Shown here in pieces: positions 46,083 through 58,289 of a stretch of DNA of 64,000 nucleotides. The position numbers were made by a program, and so were the translations under genes. Within the stretch, counting starts at the first letter, position 1, and every line of letters begins with the position of its first letter. The stretch is from a virus: the IMG/VR virus record IMGVR_UViG_3300028073_000008, positions 32,001 through 96,000 of that record; one strand, given 5' to 3'. The notes under the pieces were generated by a model, which saw only the letters and a list, made by a program, of their open reading frames with translations, was not told the origin of the DNA and searched no databases.

Positions 46083-46762
46083 AGTACGAATACTATTACA
46101 ATCAGATGCCAGGGCAAGAACCTTGGCGCAACAATCTGATCTATACCAGCCTTATGAGCGAAGATGGTACTGTATTCGTACAATGGTACTATAATGATAC
46201 TGCCTATCACCAAGGGCAGAATCAGGTAGTGGATCCCGAATTGATGGAAGAAAAATGGCAACGTGAGCTAAAGTATCTACAGCTGATGCGAGCTTCGCAC
46301 AGTCATCTGGTGCCAGAAATACTAGACATCGATTACAAGTATAGAAAAATCTATCTGCGTGTCAATGGCAACGACTTTTGGCAGCGTAAGCTAGACGTTG
46401 GCAGTTTCGATGCTGTGTTGCCCAATTGGCGTGAACAGATGTTGGAAATCATAGACGCACACAAGAAGCTAAAATTACACAAATACAGCATGCATCCCAG
46501 CAGCTATTTCCTAGTCGACGGACAGTTGAAAAGCATCAACTACTTTTTTACCTATCACGACAGCGAACCTTATATCAGCATAGCCGACGTAGAAAGCCAT
46601 ATCTATTCTACGAGACAGGAACAGATGAAGAAAGTGTTAGCTGAAAGCACGATTAGCTGGAACGATCCGCAACCCTGGACCACTTTCGATTGGCTGTGTT
46701 GGAACAGCTTTAGATCAGAATATCCAGCAGATTTCGTAGAGGAAGCATTAAAACATGTTTAA
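46079..46762 (+). CDS. kinase-fold-like hypothetical
   Basis: WQREL...VPEI, MHPSS, INYF. Confidence 0.45.
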   Translation: MKYEYYYNQMPGQEPWRNNLIYTSLMSEDGTVFVQWYYNDTAYHQGQNQVVDPELMEEKWQRELKYLQLMRASHSHLVPEILDIDYKYRKIYLRVNGNDFWQRKLDVGSFDAVLPNWREQMLEIIDAHKKLKLHKYSMHPSSYFLVDGQLKSINYFFTYHDSEPYISIADVESHIYSTRQEQMKKVLAESTISWNDPQPWTTFDWLCWNSFRSEYPADFVEEALKHV

Positions 46763-47312
46763 ACTCATACGCTGGAACCCCGATCTAGATCTTTCGGACT
46801 TTTACAGGCGAGCAGCAGCCAAAGGTTTTGAAAATAATTCCAATCAGCAGATCATGATCGATTCTTTGAGCAAAGAAGAACGATGGGCCGCATGGATTTT
46901 ATATTATAATGATCTAGCTGCTGGTGCTGTAGCTGCGCATTCTTTTCCTGAGATGGGAGAAAATGCTTATAGGATCTGCGCCAGGACTTGTGTACTATCT
47001 GATGATCTGCCTTTACATCATTTGAGAACCAAATGGGGAATCATACGGCATCAAAACTACACCGCACAGTTTTTCATACCTGCCTGTATAGAATGGGCCG
47101 GTCGTGACAAAGATCTTTACATCACTAGCAATGAAAGCAAATCAGGTAGCCAAAGACTGGTACATGAAATTTTTTGTCCTTTATTAGCCAAAAGTGGTGT
47201 ACTTTCCAAAACAAAGGATATATACTATAGAGGTCTTACACAAACTGCTTGGCGTCTCGATGTTGAGCTGTTTTTTAAGCAACTAGATCAATTTGGTAGA
47301 TGGGTGTTGTAA
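46755..47312 (+). CDS. GNAT-like hypothetical
   Basis: AYRICARTC..., LYITSN. Confidence 0.4.
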   Translation: MFKLIRWNPDLDLSDFYRRAAAKGFENNSNQQIMIDSLSKEERWAAWILYYNDLAAGAVAAHSFPEMGENAYRICARTCVLSDDLPLHHLRTKWGIIRHQNYTAQFFIPACIEWAGRDKDLYITSNESKSGSQRLVHEIFCPLLAKSGVLSKTKDIYYRGLTQTAWRLDVELFFKQLDQFGRWVL

Positions 47313-47347
47313 AAATGCAACAATTTTACCAAAAATGAATCTAGGGG

Positions 47348-47376
47348 TTGACAACGAGACTAAATAAACTTATACT
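47348..47376 (+). promoter_or_regulatory. sigma70 promoter heading the tRNA region
   Basis: TTGACA-17-TATACT; embedded TAAATA. Confidence 0.85.
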
Positions 47377-47417
47377 TGGACTAACTGTTAGAAATAACAG
47401 AAAGGAAACTGAAGCAA

Positions 47418-47567
47418 ATGAAATCATCGACATTACATAGACAAATGATACAGAAAGCGCAATTGGGCGGCTTTAATGCCACCTATTGGCCCGTATGTTC
47501 AATTAGTCTCGCTAATGATCGTACACCAGAGCTACAGCCGGGGTCCACGAAGGATACGATGATGTAA
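47418..47567 (+). CDS. candidate attenuator leader peptide (49 aa, all 20 amino acids)
   Basis: AAGGA then MKSSTLHRQMIQKAQLGGFNATYWPVCSISLANDRTPELQPGSTKDTMM; 37 distinct codons. Confidence 0.7.
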   Translation: MKSSTLHRQMIQKAQLGGFNATYWPVCSISLANDRTPELQPGSTKDTMM

Positions 47568-47603
47568 CACAAATTACACATCAAGAATTCAAAGGACCCC
47601 AGG
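47538..47603 (+). promoter_or_regulatory. antiterminator hairpin
   Basis: CCGGGGTCC pairs with GGACCCC(A)GG; inner stem GATGATGTAA/TTACACATC. Confidence 0.65.
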
Positions 47604-47628
47604 ATTAAAAACCCTGGGGTTTTTGTTT
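47596..47628 (+). terminator. intrinsic terminator (attenuator)
   Basis: ACCCCAGG-loop-CCTGGGGT then TTTTGTTT. Confidence 0.85.
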
Positions 47629-47642
47629 ATAAGGAATGAAGA

Positions 47643-47831
47643 ATGGAATGGAAATACGAAAACATCGATCATAGCAAGCTCAATGATCGTATCGTCGAGC
47701 AAGCATATCATGGAACGCTTCCATCTGTTTTAAACGAGGAAAGTGTTCAGCGTATGATCGCTGACAAGATTGAAAGAGCAAAACAGGAAAGAAACTGCTT
47801 AGTTAAGCTAGGTTACTTTACTGAGAACTAA
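47643..47831 (+). CDS. hypothetical protein, first gene after attenuator
   Basis: SD AAGGA. Confidence 0.6.
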   Translation: MEWKYENIDHSKLNDRIVEQAYHGTLPSVLNEESVQRMIADKIERAKQERNCLVKLGYFTEN

Positions 47832-47840
47832 AGTGTGTAT

Positions 47841-48064
47841 AGGGAACGCGGCCCTGCTGGCACTATAAACATCGGCTATTAACGTGGGCGGCCTGGGGGA
47901 TGAGAAGCCTGTGGCGGAAACGCAGGTGGTAAAAACCCAGTGTAGTTAAACACTCTCTCTTGCCTTTGAAACAGGCATGACAGCATAGCGGAGAGTGCTT
48001 AACTACCCACACCTACCCTTCTCCCCCTGACGGATAAAACGCATAGCGGCTGGAATAGGTGTGG
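47841..48064 (+). ncRNA. unassigned structured RNA(s)
   Basis: non-coding; several stems including GTAGTTAAACACTCTC/GAGAGTGCTTAACTAC and CCACACCTA/TAGGTGTGG. Confidence 0.45.
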
Positions 48065-48074
48065 TACATAATTT

Positions 48075-48160
48075 GGAGGCGTGTGCCGAGCAGCGAAGGC
48101 AGCGGTCTGTAAAACCGTGACATAGAAACAGCGTAGGTGCGAGTCCTACCGCCTCCACCA
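48075..48160 (+). tRNA. tRNA-Tyr(GTA)
   Basis: cloverleaf, long V arm, CCA. Confidence 0.88.
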
Positions 48161-48188
48161 TATTCACGCTAAATATTAGGCAAGGAGA

Positions 48189-48626
48189 ATGCCTATGATA
48201 GCTACTAAATTTACTACGACTAACAATGATTCTAATTTTACAACCATCGACGAGTTCAGTGGGTGGTTAAGGGATCTTGTAGGAATAGAATATTTTAAAG
48301 AACTGACTTATATTAGGTCGGATGCGATCATAGACGGAATTGCTACTCCTGTAGGTAGTTATTATTGGGAAGCAGAAACAAAGAGTGCGATTTATATGGT
48401 CTTTCATCGAGATCTGCTTGACGCTAAATCCTTCCAATTAAATTACCTTTCTAATGATATAGCACGTTCTGTAGAGCAGGCCGTCAAAGAACACGGTTGG
48501 TCTATTAAGATGGAATCACTATCAGCAGATCCTGATCCGGAAGTTAGCAATTTCCAAATCATAGATCATCCTACAAACGTAGAAAACATACGCCCTAGCA
48601 GAAGAACAGAAATTAGCGGCCCTTAA
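48189..48626 (+). CDS. hypothetical protein
   Basis: TAAATA and AAGGAG upstream; stop lies inside next tRNA. Confidence 0.6.
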   Translation: MPMIATKFTTTNNDSNFTTIDEFSGWLRDLVGIEYFKELTYIRSDAIIDGIATPVGSYYWEAETKSAIYMVFHRDLLDAKSFQLNYLSNDIARSVEQAVKEHGWSIKMESLSADPDPEVSNFQIIDHPTNVENIRPSRRTEISGP

Positions 48627-48694
48627 CTCAGCTGGACCAGAGTGCTTGTCTTCGAAACAAGAAGTCGGGAGTTCGAATCTCTCAGGGCCGGCCA
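48617..48694 (+). tRNA. tRNA-Arg(TCG)
   Basis: cttgt-CTTCGAA-acaag, CCA. Confidence 0.88.
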
Positions 48695-48700
48695 ATCATT

Positions 48701-48774
48701 ATCGGACTGATGTAACGGCAGCATGACGGTCTCCAAAACCGTTCGTTGGGGTTCAAATCCCTAGTCCGGTGCCA
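48701..48774 (+). tRNA. tRNA-Trp(CCA)
   Basis: acggt-CTCCAAA-accgt, CCA. Confidence 0.88.
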
Positions 48775-48777
48775 TTT

Positions 48778-48855
48778 ACCACTTTAGCTCAACTGGATAA
48801 GAGCACAACCTTGCGAAGGTTGAGGTTAGGGGTTCGAGTCCCTTAAGTGGTGCCA
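48778..48855 (+). tRNA. tRNA-Arg(GCG)
   Basis: caacc-TTGCGAA-ggttg, CCA. Confidence 0.85.
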
Positions 48856-49268
48856 AAGATGTCTGGATGTGAAGGTTTAACTGTAACATTTATGACTTTG
48901 CTGACAAATTTAAAATGTCGGCTCAACGTATCAAATATTTCGATGTTAAGTGCTTGACCTGCTCGGCTATAACTGTTACTGCCTATAGCACCATAGTAAT
49001 CTATGTCAAGACCTTTGCGTCGACCATAGTCAGGAAATACACCACAAAGAAAGAGACATTCGTCTCCTAAGCTCTTAGCATCATGTGAGTTTTTTATCCT
49101 ATGATAAGTTTCTATGAAACTATCTTCGGGCATCCAGTTTGGACGATCGATATGGCTGGCGAGCAACATGACTACATATTGCTCGACGAACAACGGCAGC
49201 TCATACCCGTAACTATCTTTAGTTTGGTTAATGAGCAGCTTGAATGCTGAAACGTATTCATCGCTCAT
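48843..49268 (-). CDS. hypothetical protein, antisense within tRNA array
   Basis: MSDEYV...LGDECLFLCGVFP; minus-strand TAAATA upstream. Confidence 0.65.
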   Translation of the reverse strand: MSDEYVSAFKLLINQTKDSYGYELPLFVEQYVVMLLASHIDRPNWMPEDSFIETYHRIKNSHDAKSLGDECLFLCGVFPDYGRRKGLDIDYYGAIGSNSYSRAGQALNIEIFDTLSRHFKFVSKVINVTVKPSHPDIFGTT

Positions 49269-49286
49269 AATAATATTTATTTCAGA

Positions 49287-49360
49287 GGTGTCTTTAGTGT
49301 AGTGGTAGCAAAGCTGACTGTGAATCAGCAGGCGAGGGTTCGATTCCCCAAGGCACCCCA
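49287..49360 (+). tRNA. tRNA-His(GTG), canonical G-1:C73 type
   Basis: gctga-CTGTGAA-tcagc; G-1, C73, CCA. Confidence 0.85.
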
Positions 49361-49365
49361 TTTTA

Positions 49366-49515
49366 AGGGATAGACGATAGTTTAGAGTCCCTGCCAGTCT
49401 AGGCACAGTGGGGTTGACTGTGTTGACACTATAGTATGACTGAAGCCGGTATGTTAAACTTGACTATTCGAGACAATCTAGCGAGTCCTCCCAGGAGGAT
49501 AGTTAGGCGCCCGAC
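49366..49515 (+). ncRNA. unassigned structured RNA
   Basis: non-coding spacer with several hairpins. Confidence 0.35.
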
Positions 49516-49521
49516 TTTTAT

Positions 49522-49599
49522 CTGTGTGTAATGTCAGCCCGGGAGACGGCCTGGTTTGGAGCCAGGAGGCCGTAGGTTCAAATCCTACCACACAGACCA
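49522..49599 (+). tRNA. tRNA-Pro(TGG)
   Basis: cctgg-TTTGGAG-ccagg, CCA. Confidence 0.85.
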
Positions 49600-49604
49600 A
49601 ATAT

Positions 49605-49680
49605 GCCAGTTTAGCTGATGTGGTCATAGCGGTGGTCTGAAGAACCATTGAACTAGGTTCGATTCCTAGAGCTGGCACCA
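49605..49680 (+). tRNA. tRNA-Phe(GAA)
   Basis: gtggt-CTGAAGA-accat, CCA. Confidence 0.88.
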
Positions 49681-49690
49681 AATTTTTTAG

Positions 49691-49718
49691 TTGACACGTT
49701 TTTTAGATGTGCTATATT
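49691..49718 (+). promoter_or_regulatory. sigma70-like internal promoter
   Basis: TTGACA-16-TATATT with TG. Confidence 0.55.
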
Positions 49719-50284: not shown

Positions 50285-51772
50285 ATGAAAGGTCTTATTT
50301 TTAATATTTTGGGTTCACCGACCCGAACGCTAGGCGCATATCGTATAGCTCATTGTCTCAGAGAAGAAGGTTGGGACATCGAAGTTATCGACTTCTGCGA
50401 AGTTTGGGAGTTAGATGAATTACAAGAGTTAGCAAAATCCCGGATCGACAAAGACACTGTCTTTCTAGGATTTAGTTTTCTTTTCAGCAACATGTCTGAA
50501 AGATTTGAAAACTATATCAAATGGTTGAAAGTTACTTTCCCAGATGTATTGTTGATTTCAGGAGGACAAGTAGCTGCTCAGTTTGATACTAGTTCTTTTG
50601 ATTTACATATAAAAGGTTTCGGTGAACTAGCACTGTTAGAATTCCTTAGATGGTACAAAGGCAACGGACCTAGACCGAGATTTGATTTGTTATCAAAAGG
50701 GTGTAAGCTCATAGATGCTAACAAACAGTATCCGGCATATCCAATGAAGAGTCTCATGGTCAAGTATGAAGATAGAGATTTCATAGACTCAAACGAATGG
50801 TTGACTATAGAGTTTGCTCGAGGTTGTAAATTTAAATGTGACTTCTGTAACTTTCCAATCTTAGGAGTCAAGGGCGACTATAGCAGAGATGCCGAAGACG
50901 CTAGGATACAATTACAAGACAGCTATGATAGATTCGGAGTATCCAACTATCTCGTATCAGATGAAACATTTAATGACCGAACTGAAAAGATCAGCAAGTT
51001 CGCTGATGTTGTAGAACAGCTTTCATTCCGACCTTGGTTCTCAGGATTCGTCAGGGCAGATTTATTGATATCTCGTCCTAGAGATAGAGAAGAACTGCTT
51101 AGGATGAATTTCCTAGGACAGTATTATGGTATAGAAAGTTTCAACAGAGATGCTGCCAGGATAGTTGGCAAAGGAATGGATCCTGAAAAGATCAAACAAG
51201 GGTTGATAGATATAAAAAATTATTATCATTCAAATGGTACAAAATTGTATCGAGGATCTATTAGTTTGATCATAGGGTTAGCAAAAGAAAATAGAGAAAG
51301 CCTAGACAATACTATTAGATGGTTGACAGAGAATTGGAGTGGCGAATCATTCAGTCCGTTTGTATTAGAAGTGCCTATAGGTTCGTTCGATACAAAATCT
51401 TCGATAAGTTCAAACTATCAATCATATGGTTATAGATTGATGAAAGATTCTGATGTAAAACGCAGCGCAAACTTGAATGTCGGGTATGTTAGGAGAGAAA
51501 CAGCTCTTAGTGAAGACTGTCTAAAATGGGAGCATGACGATCTTAACATAGTAGAAGCTACCCAGATACAGGATGAATGGTTAGAAGTTAGAGATAATCC
51601 TAACAATAAATTCACTGTAAACTGTTTTAGTTTAAGCGATGTCGGTAGACACTTACCTATATCTGAAAAATTAAAACTGCCTCAAAAGGCAATCGACATG
51701 AGTACAGATTGGAATCATCCAGATTTCAAAGAACTGATGGCGAATTATAAGTTCAAAAAATTATCTTTGTGA
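50285..51772 (+). CDS. B12-binding (class B-like) radical SAM protein
   Basis: LGAYRIA..LR, SGG, ARGCKFKCDFC, DETFND, GIES; TATAAATA upstream. Confidence 0.85.
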   Translation: MKGLIFNILGSPTRTLGAYRIAHCLREEGWDIEVIDFCEVWELDELQELAKSRIDKDTVFLGFSFLFSNMSERFENYIKWLKVTFPDVLLISGGQVAAQFDTSSFDLHIKGFGELALLEFLRWYKGNGPRPRFDLLSKGCKLIDANKQYPAYPMKSLMVKYEDRDFIDSNEWLTIEFARGCKFKCDFCNFPILGVKGDYSRDAEDARIQLQDSYDRFGVSNYLVSDETFNDRTEKISKFADVVEQLSFRPWFSGFVRADLLISRPRDREELLRMNFLGQYYGIESFNRDAARIVGKGMDPEKIKQGLIDIKNYYHSNGTKLYRGSISLIIGLAKENRESLDNTIRWLTENWSGESFSPFVLEVPIGSFDTKSSISSNYQSYGYRLMKDSDVKRSANLNVGYVRRETALSEDCLKWEHDDLNIVEATQIQDEWLEVRDNPNNKFTVNCFSLSDVGRHLPISEKLKLPQKAIDMSTDWNHPDFKELMANYKFKKLSL

Positions 51773-51801
51773 TTGACAGCAGTCAGTTAATGTAGTACAA
51801 T
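51773..51801 (+). promoter_or_regulatory. sigma70 internal promoter
   Basis: TTGACA-17-TACAAT. Confidence 0.75.
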
Positions 51802-53004: not shown

Positions 53005-53050
53005 GAATACGGTTGACACAGTCAACAAAAGACTACATAATATAAACAAT

Positions 53051-53364: not shown

Positions 53365-53454
53365 GGAAGTGTGGTCGAGTCTGGTTTATGGCAACGGTCT
53401 TGAAAACCGTCGAACCGAAAGGTTCCGTGAGTTCGAATCTCACCGCTTCCGCCA
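53365..53454 (+). tRNA. tRNA-Ser(TGA)
   Basis: acggt-CTTGAAA-accgt, long V arm, CCA. Confidence 0.92.
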
Positions 53455-53468
53455 TATTAAATAGTATC

Positions 53469-54257
53469 ATGAAAGCTATAAAGATACTGATCTGCGGACT
53501 GCCAGGAGCAGGTAAAACAACACTGGCTAAAGCATTACAATCTAGATTAGGTGATACCGAACACCTAGAAGCAGATGCTGTTAGAAAACGGTTTGATGAT
53601 TGGGACTTCAGTGAAGAAGGACGAATCAGGCAAAGCTTCAGGATGAAACTGCTGTCAGATGAAAGCGAAGCACGTTACGTGATCGCCGACTTCATAGCAC
53701 CTCTAGAAGCTACTAGAAAAAACTATTCAGCAGATTGGACCATTTGGGTTGACACTATCCGCGAAGGCAGATATGAAGATACCAACAAGATGTTCCAAGA
53801 ACCAGACATATATGATTTCCGTATCACTGAACAAGATGCTGAAAAATGGGCAGCGTTTATCTCTGATCATATATTGGCCGATCGCAGACGTCCTGTATGG
53901 AATAATCGCAAAGAAACTGTACAGATGTTAGGTCGTTGGCAACCATGGCATGATGGGCATCGTGCTCTATTCGAAAGAGCGTTGGCCAAGACTGGTCAAG
54001 TCTGTATCATGGTGCGTGATTGCCAAGGTTGGAATGATAGTAATCCGTTCAACTTCTACGATGTGGCTAGATTTATCAAGAGAGATCTAGATCCTTTGTA
54101 TCAAGGTCAATTCCAAATCGTGCTTGTGCCTAATATCGTGAACATCACGTATGGTAGGGATGTAGGTTACAAGATCGAACAAGAACATTTTGATCAATCT
54201 ATCACTGATATCTCTGCTACAAAGATAAGAGAATCGTTGAATATCAAGAAGGATTGA
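53469..54257 (+). CDS. APS-kinase-like P-loop domain fused to HxGH nucleotidyltransferase
   Basis: GLPGAGKTT, DFSEEGR; GRWQPWHDGH. Confidence 0.8.
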   Translation: MKAIKILICGLPGAGKTTLAKALQSRLGDTEHLEADAVRKRFDDWDFSEEGRIRQSFRMKLLSDESEARYVIADFIAPLEATRKNYSADWTIWVDTIREGRYEDTNKMFQEPDIYDFRITEQDAEKWAAFISDHILADRRRPVWNNRKETVQMLGRWQPWHDGHRALFERALAKTGQVCIMVRDCQGWNDSNPFNFYDVARFIKRDLDPLYQGQFQIVLVPNIVNITYGRDVGYKIEQEHFDQSITDISATKIRESLNIKKD

Positions 54258-54258
54258 T

Positions 54259-54900
54259 ATGAGTAGCGTTGTTGTTACAGGTGAAAAGAACATAGCGTTC
54301 GTACACAATCCCAAAGTGGCTGGTATGAGTATCAAGAGTTGGTTGATATCTAACAGAAAGAACAGCACGTATCAAGAATTTGATCTCAAAGTAACGTTCA
54401 ATGATCTAAAAAACACAGTAGACAATTTGCCATTTAGCTTTAGCATAGTTAGAAACCCTTGGGACCGCATGGTCAGTGGTTACTATGAACTGCGTAGATG
54501 GTATGATAATCCAGGAAAAGCCAGCCAAGACAATTTAAATTTTGTCCGAGACTATTTTAATAGATCTCCGTTTCCATCTTTCGATCAGTTTATGAACGAA
54601 TTTCCACAAGACGAAATGTGGTCTGTGTTATATCCTATGCTGTCTCCATATCCTCCTACATGGCCTAAAGGTGCCGTGACACAGAAGCAGTATGTTGACG
54701 GTGTAAATTTGATATTGCGATATGAAAATATCGAAGAAGATTTCAAACAGATACAAAAGATCTATGATTGTGATGTGCCATTGCCCATGATCAATACTTC
54801 CGAAAATAATGACTATAGATCATACTACAACGATAGGACTAAAGCCATAGTAGCTGCGTTCTTCCAAGAAGACATAGACACATTCAGATACAGTTTCTAA
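54259..54900 (+). CDS. sulfotransferase (family 2)
   Basis: FVHNPKVAG.S, VRNPWDRMVS.Y, ED...F.Y.F. Confidence 0.85.
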   Translation: MSSVVVTGEKNIAFVHNPKVAGMSIKSWLISNRKNSTYQEFDLKVTFNDLKNTVDNLPFSFSIVRNPWDRMVSGYYELRRWYDNPGKASQDNLNFVRDYFNRSPFPSFDQFMNEFPQDEMWSVLYPMLSPYPPTWPKGAVTQKQYVDGVNLILRYENIEEDFKQIQKIYDCDVPLPMINTSENNDYRSYYNDRTKAIVAAFFQEDIDTFRYSF

Positions 54901-54961: not shown

Positions 54962-55381
54962 ATGAGTATCATGGACTTTATCCATAAGATAGAACAAGTC
55001 AGTGAAACTGCTGCTAGAAGACTGTCTCATCGTGCTTTACACGCGGCCGCAACTGTCTATAGTGATGCTAAAGAATTAGCCGACAAGTCGGCCAAGGACG
55101 TAGACAAAGCCAAGGCCAAACTAGAAGATGCCATGAAGAAGGCATATCAACACGCCGATGCTGCCCATTCAGCCGCAGTCGACGCATATGAAAAAGCCAA
55201 TGCTGAAGCACAAAGATTGGCACAAGAAGTCGAAGACGCTGCTTTCGAAGCAGCAAATAAACTGAATGCTCTTATCAATGCTGGGTTACAACCTATTCCC
55301 GGCAAAGAAGAGAAAAAAGAAGAACCAGAACCTTATTCTAGAGCAAATGCTGTAGACAAAGATTCTGTTTCAGTGTTATAA
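54962..55381 (+). CDS. Ala-rich helical hypothetical
   Basis: SD AGGAGG. Confidence 0.65.
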   Translation: MSIMDFIHKIEQVSETAARRLSHRALHAAATVYSDAKELADKSAKDVDKAKAKLEDAMKKAYQHADAAHSAAVDAYEKANAEAQRLAQEVEDAAFEAANKLNALINAGLQPIPGKEEKKEEPEPYSRANAVDKDSVSVL

Positions 55382-55390
55382 TAGAACATT

Positions 55391-55595: not shown

Positions 55596-56213
55596 ATGAA
55601 ATACGCTTATATCAATCCAACTGTGATAGCTGTAGACGACCTGCCAGCAGATGTCTTTGCCTATCTCAAGAACATGGTAGATACAGCGCATCAAATGACT
55701 CAGTTCAACGATGCTGGAGATCAATCCATTAGCATTAGAGGCGGTCAACAGATACAGCTATTGCCTAACGACTTTGGTCAGGATGTCACTGTATTGAAAA
55801 GTTTCGTGGAACAACGATGCTATGATTACATGGATACACTGACTAGACAATCGGGTAAACCTGATCTAGTCAATCTTGAACCAGAACTTGTGAGTGCCTG
55901 GACTATCAGACAAACAGCTGGTAACTATCAGGCCTTACATACACATAACGCACATATCAGCGGCAACATCTACATAGATGTTCCAGACCTAGATCCAGGA
56001 AGTCAATCTTCAGATGCCAATCTAGAATTTAGATTTCCTGTGGTCAAGGATCCCAGCAAGTTTACTTTTATAGATCAATTGAGATTTTCTCCGCGACCCA
56101 TGATGATGGTCATGTTTCCTAGCTATCTTCCACATACAGTATACCCGTGGAATGGACAAGGACACAGAACTATTTTGGCATGGGACGTGAAATTAAAGCC
56201 AAAAATGGCTTGA
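55596..56213 (+). CDS. 2OG-Fe(II) oxygenase (TIGR02466-like)
   Basis: HTH...SG..Y, FPSYL.H.V.P, R..AW. Confidence 0.78.
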   Translation: MKYAYINPTVIAVDDLPADVFAYLKNMVDTAHQMTQFNDAGDQSISIRGGQQIQLLPNDFGQDVTVLKSFVEQRCYDYMDTLTRQSGKPDLVNLEPELVSAWTIRQTAGNYQALHTHNAHISGNIYIDVPDLDPGSQSSDANLEFRFPVVKDPSKFTFIDQLRFSPRPMMMVMFPSYLPHTVYPWNGQGHRTILAWDVKLKPKMA

Positions 56214-57719: not shown

Positions 57720-58289
57720 ATGATACCGGTCATCGATAGTAACGACATCTTTAAGACATATGATTTCAGTTCTGTCATAACACAACAGGATGTCGATCAG
57801 GCTATTTCTAGTATCGAGCGTGTCATAGCAGATGGTAACTATTTTGAAAATAGTCCCAAGTTCCAAACCAAAGAAAACATATTCCAAAGACCAGAATCCT
57901 GTTGGTTGAAGTTTCGTATGAGCTTTATATTCAGTGTGTTCATGTATCTAGGACGTGAAGCAAAGATATCAAATATGATGGCTTGGTCATTTATGACCAA
58001 TCTACACGGTGCCGAGGATCGAGATAAACTTTGGCATCATCATCACCATAAAACAAATACTAACATGCTCAGTGGCATAATGTATCTTCATATACCCGAC
58101 GATGTTACCAATCGGGATACCTGCGGAACAGAAATGGCTCCAAACGGTCTAGAATCAGATGACAGACTGTTTATTAGACCATATAATTATACTTGGTTGA
58201 TATATCCAAGCAGGATATGGCACCGCCCGGGAATAGTACAGAGTAACAACTATAGATTCGTATTAGCAGGAGATATCGAATACAGTTAA
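57720..58289 (+). CDS. 2OG-Fe(II) oxygenase-like
   Basis: WHHH, SGIMYL, IYPS..WHRP, RFVLAGD. Confidence 0.65.
   Translation: MIPVIDSNDIFKTYDFSSVITQQDVDQAISSIERVIADGNYFENSPKFQTKENIFQRPESCWLKFRMSFIFSVFMYLGREAKISNMMAWSFMTNLHGAEDRDKLWHHHHHKTNTNMLSGIMYLHIPDDVTNRDTCGTEMAPNGLESDDRLFIRPYNYTWLIYPSRIWHRPGIVQSNNYRFVLAGDIEYS

Follow-up and report, generated by a model that had tools for sequence, protein, structure and literature searches.

The 64,000-nucleotide stretch of viral DNA analysed here (the window) belongs to a viral contig of 169 kb, whose completeness is estimated at about one half. ARAGORN finds 33 tRNA genes in the window, from position 48075 onward and all on the same strand; a first reading made from the letters of the DNA, without database searches (the sequence-only reading), had described this array as 35 tRNAs for 20 amino acids, and the coverage of 20 amino acids stands while the count is reduced to 33. 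Ahead of the array lie, in this order, a sigma-70-type promoter, a 5′ untranslated region (UTR) with a small hairpin and a Shine-Dalgarno-like (SD) element, a 49-codon leader open reading frame (ORF), an intrinsic terminator, a 62-codon ORF and a conserved structured RNA that we call RNA X (Table 1). The sequence-only reading had named the TTGACA-17-TATACT promoter, the AAGGA element with its 11-nt spacing to the ATG and the 49-codon ORF, and all three are present at the positions that it gave; the promoter scores 11/12, which ties for the best score in a promoter scan of 18 kb. We infer that transcription of the leader RNA starts near position 47383.

Table 1. Features of the leader element and of the genes that follow it (positions are those of the window; empty cells, no entry)
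Feature	Position	Strand	Remarks
Sigma-70-type promoter	47348–47376	+	TTGACA (47348–53), 17-nt spacer, TATACT (47371–76)
5′-UTR hairpin	47385–47400	+	CUGUUA-GAAA-UAACAG; from RNA folding
Shine-Dalgarno-like element	47402–47406	+	AAGGA, 11 nt before the ATG
Leader ORF	47418–47567	+	49 codons + TAA; codons 1–38, with all 20 amino acids, are the proposed sensor zone
Tentative hairpin H1, within the ORF	47487–47531	+	UGG + GUAUG with CGUAC + CCA
Antiterminator stem-loop	47540–47600	+	from folds and covariance-model alignment
P1a	47540–46 with 47594–600	+	GGGGUCC with GGACCCC
P1b	47549–51 with 47588–90	+	in homologs usually GGAG with CUUC
P2, apical helix	47558–67 with 47574–82	+	variable sequence; stop codon (47565–67) in the 5′ strand
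Intrinsic terminator	47596–47628	+	ACCCCAGG / CCUGGGGU + U-tract; GC-rich; 98% paired in homologs
62-codon ORF	47643–47831	+	normally spaced ribosome binding site; first gene that read-through would reach
Conserved structured RNA X	47832–48070	+	consensus fold; of the cargo that follows the terminator, the most widely conserved
First tRNA block (Tyr, Arg, Trp, Arg, His, Pro, Phe) and 145-codon ORF	48075–49680	+	no strong promoter since the terminator
Array-internal promoters, 11/12	49691–49718, 51773–51801, 53013–53041, 55353–55382, 58159–58187		near-consensus

Homologs of the leader were collected by peptide search, which gave three and then nine viral loci, and by a metagenome scan, which added 59 loci of which one was false; there are 67 homologous leader loci, from which 47 distinct homologs were compared. 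A profile search of a large protein collection returned 380 protein clusters of 43–79 residues, none of them named. The upstream gene was also tried as a route to leader homologs, and it led to relatives (L002–L020) without downstream tRNA arrays in which no leader was found. Among GenBank phages there is no relative of the element by DNA or by peptide, and no cultured host is known. A complete phage genome of 364 kb has one copy of the element, as does a record of 278 kb. Wherever the downstream DNA suffices, a same-strand tRNA array starts 280–1000 nt after the leader ORF, the exception being one small group in which the array lies at 2.8 kb, and the 3 kb upstream of the leader are free of tRNA genes in nearly all loci. 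Three further loci that were reached independently via the protein collection have the same layout, and so does the complete genome, with 23–34 tRNAs behind the element, usually for 20 amino acids. The genes upstream of the leader differ between loci; since these vary and the array is constant, the element is linked to the array and not to its upstream neighbours. The sequence-only reading had raised the question of whether related phages place a short ORF and covarying stems (below) before their tRNA arrays, and they do so throughout a large phage clade.

A promoter scoring 11–12/12 lies upstream of the leader ATG in 47/47 distinct homologs. The distance from the end of the −10 element to the ATG is 37–61 nt in most of them, and AAGGA with its long spacing recurs across most homologs. 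In five (L042, L046, L071, L083 and L092) the −10 hexamer of the best-scoring promoter ends 6–10 nt before the leader ATG, which implies a leaderless leader mRNA; the others mostly have a UTR of roughly 30–55 nt with a hairpin and AAGGA. Given that a consensus promoter is found everywhere and that five homologs are apparently leaderless, initiation at the leader ATG appears to be preserved via two different routes. At the position of the 5′-UTR hairpin the relatives have stems of differing sequence, and because the leaderless relatives lack it this hairpin is probably dispensable.

The leader frame is open in 47/47 distinct homologs and both other frames are open in 0/47, on a homolog tree whose total length is ~8 substitutions per site. 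All 47 keep the ATG, their ORFs are 45–54 codons long, and every indel in the ORF alignment is a multiple of three. We infer that the leader is translated. As the sequence-only reading had anticipated for relatives, this open frame goes with a poorly conserved peptide: the N-terminal part has a pN/pS of 0.72 and the tail one of 1.08, and there is no bias towards third positions. The conservation of two blocks, GGFMPSYW and NDRTPE, goes further than completeness (the presence of all 20 amino acids, below) would need. NDRTPE has a pN/pS of 0.24, indicating purifying selection, and its variation is concentrated at third codon positions; the conservation of the two blocks hints that the peptide itself may have a role. 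The spacing between them varies by 0–8 residues among homologs. Searches of Pfam and PHROGs place the leader peptide in no family, and AlphaFold gives it no confident fold (mean pLDDT 57).

According to the sequence-only reading, all 20 amino acids occur by codon 38 and 37 of the 49 codons are distinct; both counts are correct. The leader has no codon runs, and most amino acids occur one to three times each. When the genes of this genome are cut into 49-codon windows, a window has on average 29.3 distinct codons (sd 2.8); at least 37 distinct codons are found in 0.14% of such windows, all 20 amino acids in 2.7%, and the two jointly in 0.03%, so that the composition of the leader exceeds chance. 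Composition in a single genome, for a feature picked post hoc, would not be compelling alone. The homologs were compared with a phylogenetic null that keeps the site-specific column composition and the phylogeny and lets columns evolve independently. The complete set of 20 is present in 40 of the 47 distinct homologs and the remaining seven have 19, whereas 16–19 complete peptides are expected under the null and the maximum in 400 simulations is 38/47. With the root forced to be complete the maximum is 34 complete peptides, and a plain column shuffle gives 15.9. The excess stems mainly from His and Cys, each of which has about one copy per peptide: His is present in 47/47 (36.8 expected) and is spread over 10 alignment columns, and Cys is present in 42/47 (32.9 expected) over 11 columns. 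These values support the view that amino-acid completeness is maintained by turnover in the positions of rare residues.

All 20 amino acids are located upstream of region 2, the antiterminator segment described below, in 37/47 homologs, that is, within 36–45 codons; as background, windows of 38–40 residues in phage proteins are complete in 0.5–1% of cases. Among database representatives 94/120 are complete and 25 miss one residue, mostly Cys or Val, and 75/103 independent database members without N-terminal over-extension are complete upstream of region 2, within a prefix averaging 41 residues. The idea that a missing residue mirrors a missing tRNA was rejected, since the array of the Cys-less member L101 has tRNA-Cys and that of the Val-less member L103 has tRNA-Val. 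The apparent mirroring of the tRNA set by the leader composition holds as a complete leader beside a complete array, and not for single missing residues.

The sequence-only reading had gone further and called the leader pan-codon. Completeness holds at the amino-acid level but not at the codon level, where the number of distinct codons is only slightly raised given the peptide: the window leader has 37 where 33.4 are expected from its peptide and the genome's codon usage (P = 0.048). Likewise, the synonymous codons listed as evidence that synonyms are spread out (those for Ser, Pro, Thr and Ala) are correct, but the excess of distinct codons given the peptide is weak (mean z +1.4). The four Leu codons do match the four phage Leu anticodons, with P = 0.019 if this is considered alone. 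However, 24/49 leader codons have an exact Watson-Crick phage anticodon versus 28.2 expected, and 44/49 are readable by wobble versus 86.5% of gene codons, so there is no enrichment of either kind; leader codons are thus not matched to phage anticodons, and the Leu coincidence is probably due to chance.

The tail of the leader ORF and the 30–40 nt that follow it fold into a three-part stem-loop (P1a, P1b and P2) in every homolog, with the stop codon always in P2. Region 2 starts at codon 41 in the window and at codons 37–46 across homologs. The sequence-only reading had paired CCGGGGTCC (47538–47546) with GGACCCC(A)GG (47594–47603), overlapping a terminator written as ACCCCAGG / CCTGGGGT plus a T-tract, and had placed the stop codon in an inner stem; the pairing and its overlap are borne out, and folding recovers the inner stem. 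The 3′ strand of P1a has five bases (ACCCC) in common with the 5′ arm of the terminator, so the two folds are mutually exclusive. In single-sequence folds of about 50 homologs the antiterminator has −22 to −31 kcal/mol versus −12 to −16 kcal/mol for the terminator. The 246-nt RNA of the window has the antiterminator in its minimum free energy fold and the terminator in its centroid, and its z-score versus shuffles is −4.4.

A covariance model was built from 14 sequences and 45 homologs were aligned to it (alignment A5); searches with the model give one match per locus, including one in the entire 64-kb window. In this alignment, which is fitted to the model and so favours structure, 85% of the antiterminator cells are paired, 16/20 pairs have compensatory changes on both sides, and there are 99 double-change cells versus 39 ± 4 in shuffled alignments (0/500 shuffles reach 99). 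Sliding the antiterminator partners by 1–3 columns gives far lower scores, and the independent single-sequence folds give the same helices. In the 45 homologs 98% of the terminator stem is paired, and a U-tract follows it. The strand that the two structures share covaries with both of its partners in two separate cases. The shared column has C→U in nine sequences; the antiterminator partner changes G→A in eight of these nine, and the terminator partner becomes A in three and forms a G-U wobble in six. In L101, a more distant member, the three sites read GGGUUCC, GGAACCC and GGGUU, which is a separate three-way change. Comparison with relatives supports the alternative structures that the sequence-only reading had proposed: a covarying antiterminator with the stop codon at its apex, and an intrinsic terminator that it excludes.

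Within the ORF the tentative hairpin H1 has 83% of its cells paired. Only one of its pairs clearly covaries (AU 16, GC 16, GU 12), by way of a synonymous Arg site, and the rest never vary or lose their pairing without a compensating change. H1 does not compete with region 2 and may be an RNA polymerase pause hairpin. No convincing anti-antiterminator that would sequester region 2 in the untranslated RNA was found. A GAUC/GGUC pairing proposed for this role by RNAalifold has 4–5 pairs with no compensatory change and was not adopted. An Rfam scan of positions 46500–49000 with E-values up to 10 gave only a chance-level sRNA match (E = 6.3) in the leader, and no match to the T-box or to the His, Trp, Thr or Leu leader models.

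Most leader homologs have an SD element and an ORF start just after the terminator. The protein of the 62-codon ORF has relatives at 46–60% identity in 12 viral contigs and no Pfam or PHROG function, and this small ORF is missing in some homologs, where RNA X directly follows the terminator. The RNA X motif is found behind the leader in most relatives that have enough downstream sequence. Its consensus fold has 29 pairs, 17 of them with compensatory changes, and includes two tandem hairpins that each carry GCAUAGCGG; there is no Rfam match at a permissive threshold. RNA X is probably the main cargo of read-through. As there is no 11/12 promoter between the terminator and position 49691, about seven tRNAs (Tyr to Phe) could also depend on read-through. 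The five array-internal promoters lie 9–18 nt upstream of tRNA genes (109 nt in the case of 58159–58187) and none of them has a leader ORF or terminator behind it, which limits the switch to the first unit of the array. A consensus promoter also lies between RNA X and the first tRNA in 15/37 relatives. With promoters directly before the later tRNA blocks and, in these 15 relatives, before the first tRNA, the switch cannot control the whole array. The sequence-only reading had read-through extending into the array, with the caveat that internal promoters may limit control to the first tRNAs; read-through would reach the small ORF, RNA X and the first tRNAs only.

Several other features accompany the array. 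A 187-codon ORF on the minus strand (48843–49406) lies inside it and overlaps tRNA-His (49287–49359) and the end of tRNA-Arg; its true start is probably internal. Enzyme genes are interleaved with the tRNAs (50285–51772, 53388–54900 and 55596–56213), namely those for a B12-binding radical SAM protein, a P-loop kinase-like protein, a sulfotransferase and a 2OG-Fe(II) oxygenase. This phage and its relatives encode a tmRNA of their own, whose tag is ANDNVYALAA in the present genome, and a tRNA whose anticodon, CTA, reads amber codons; in relatives these lie a few kb upstream of the leader. The sites of the tmRNA and the CTA tRNA are outside the window (G000:C1:28055–28495, with the tRNA from C1:22831; L101:3091–3520, L101:4422–4496 and L102:208–640), and the two are further translation-rescue and recoding parts of the same phages.

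We regard the element as a probable ribosome-mediated transcription attenuator of a new family, whose leader peptide has every amino acid in place of a run of one residue. The observed basis for this consists of the parts described above with their conservation and covariation, the frame that is kept open, the completeness of the amino-acid set and the place of the element in the genome. The attenuator would work as follows: the strong promoter would give rise to an RNA of ~240 nt, and ribosomes would translate the ~47-codon leader, whose first ~40 codons include all 20 amino acids and whose last ~9 codons, with the stop codon, would supply the 5′ strands of P1a, P1b and P2. GGACCCC, being both the 3′ strand of P1a and the 5′ arm of the terminator, could enter only one of the two structures. 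A ribosome that keeps pace and enters or finishes the tail would hold the 5′ strands, and GGACCCC would then pair with CCUGGGGU and transcription would terminate. If the ribosome is absent, late or stalled in the first ~38 codons, GGGGUCC would be free, the antiterminator would form once GGACCCC has been made, and the polymerase would read into the small ORF, RNA X and the first tRNAs. With no convincing anti-antiterminator, the untranslated RNA should read through by default, unlike that of trp. These steps, and with them the direction of the switch, are predicted from this geometry and from what is established for trp/his-type attenuators, and the physiological signal is a proposal too. Counting against an attenuator are the conservation of the two peptide blocks, the separate promoters within the array and, in relatives, before the first tRNA, the lack of a convincing anti-antiterminator, the fitting of the covariation alignment to the model, the roughly one quarter of members that miss one amino acid, mostly Cys or Val, and the long SD spacing (11 nt).

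As every amino acid is represented in the sensor zone, the output would be the same whichever of them is decoded slowly. A stall at any sensor codon would lead to read-through, so that the element, standing where the array begins, would be a gauge of decoding capacity as a whole, meaning the supply of any charged tRNA. We put forward only tentatively, as a serious possibility, that it is a universal meter of decoding capacity in which a shortage of any charged tRNA opens transcription into RNA X and the first tRNAs. Such a shortage could come from host shut-off, host tRNA decay or an anticodon-nuclease defence.

The same locus could be explained as an independent small gene whose ~47-residue peptide and/or ~240-nt RNA acts in trans, with a stem-loop that serves RNA stability or the control of translation termination and an adjacency to the array that is inherited synteny. 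The conservation of GGFMPSYW and NDRTPE as peptide would fit such a gene, as would the separate promoter before the first tRNA in many relatives, and there are precedents in rnTrpL and peTrpL, an attenuator-derived RNA and a leader peptide that are reported to act in trans (PMC6614838, PMC7298713). However, most of the peptide and especially its tail evolve with little constraint (pN/pS 0.72 and 1.08) and lack a confident fold, upstream synteny varies where the downstream array is constant, and a trans-acting product leaves unexplained why two exclusive helices covary three ways, why the stop codon is placed as it is and why Cys and His relocate; we consider this explanation unlikely. A chance ORF beside an ordinary terminator, without regulatory meaning, might be suspected because the feature was chosen post hoc and because a joint codon and amino-acid extreme of this size is expected ~0.1 times among the 217 short ORFs of the genome, but it is contradicted by conservation, as hundreds of diverged homologs keep the ORF, the promoter, the structures and the composition, and we give it almost no credence.

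An attenuator might also be operated by programmed arrest, with the nascent GGFMPSYW ... NDRTPE responding to one factor or small molecule and with completeness being secondary. TnaC, SecM and the Erm leaders are arrest systems that respond to a specific factor or small molecule in this way. The purifying selection on NDRTPE would suit such a role, and NDRTPE ends 8–12 nt before region 2; this would place a ribosome arrested there at the base of P1a, which also counts for arrest. On the other hand, a spacing between the two blocks that varies by 0–8 residues fits arrest by tunnel geometry poorly, completeness above the phylogenetic null stays unexplained, and we know of no arrest motif that matches GGFMPSYW or NDRTPE. 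Arrest as the basis of the switch thus seems to us quite improbable, and arrest-peptide sensing could coexist with the attenuator that reads all 20 amino acids.

That attenuator is best compared with the classical leader-peptide attenuators trpL, hisL, leuL and pheL and the multivalent thrL and ilvGMEDA, in which full translation leads to termination. It resembles the trpL type in its promoter-proximal short ORF, in the competition of an antiterminator with an intrinsic terminator and in the proposed choice of fold by ribosome position; it differs in lacking codon runs, in devoting about one codon to each of the 20 amino acids, and in having no clear 1:2 anti-antiterminator. Furthermore, trpL-type attenuators regulate biosynthetic enzymes, whereas here a phage structured RNA, a small ORF and tRNA genes follow. 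Of the features by which attenuators are recognized, the start signal behind a promoter, the intrinsic terminator, the exclusive antiterminator and an ORF end that overlaps the antiterminator 5′ strand are all seen, and a codon run or an enrichment for a regulated amino acid is not seen in the leader. The pyrBI leader has ~44 codons, and a closely following ribosome prevents its terminator; the closeness of the ribosome to RNA polymerase would be sensed in both systems, but here a close ribosome should allow the terminator. T-boxes bind uncharged tRNA directly and need no ORF. They too couple tRNA status to antitermination, whereas the coupling proposed here is ORF-based and Rfam gives no T-box match.

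The stall-sensing attenuators of resistance genes (erm, cat, ABC-F and bmrB-bmrCD; tylosin/yxjB, PMC6851288) are similar to the proposed one in that slowed leader ribosomes are sensed and no single amino acid is. These systems act on transcription or on translation, depend on drug-specific arrest peptides and regulate resistance genes; in the present element composition is conserved and not a specific arrest sequence, and no resistance gene is found behind the leader, which is followed by the 62-residue ORF without a known family, the structured RNA and the tRNAs. Full-text searches of the literature found no description of the attenuation of phage tRNA genes or of an all-amino-acid leader. 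Leader-peptide attenuation is a textbook mechanism, but to our knowledge the cases described so far sense no more than one or a few amino acids, and the genes that they control are biosynthetic, synthetase or resistance genes.

If our interpretation is correct, this leader, which keeps all 20 amino acids and gates RNA genes where a full set of phage tRNAs begins, would sense translation capacity in general. It also points to the structured RNA X as a translation-related phage product. The element is small and self-contained, and a portable sensor of any tRNA shortage could be a useful tool. With regard to the phages themselves, it would reveal how giant phages control the translation parts that they carry, and the more tentative reading as a decoding-capacity meter, if true, would make it a homeostatic or counter-defence circuit for translation that is conserved across a clade of giant freshwater phages.
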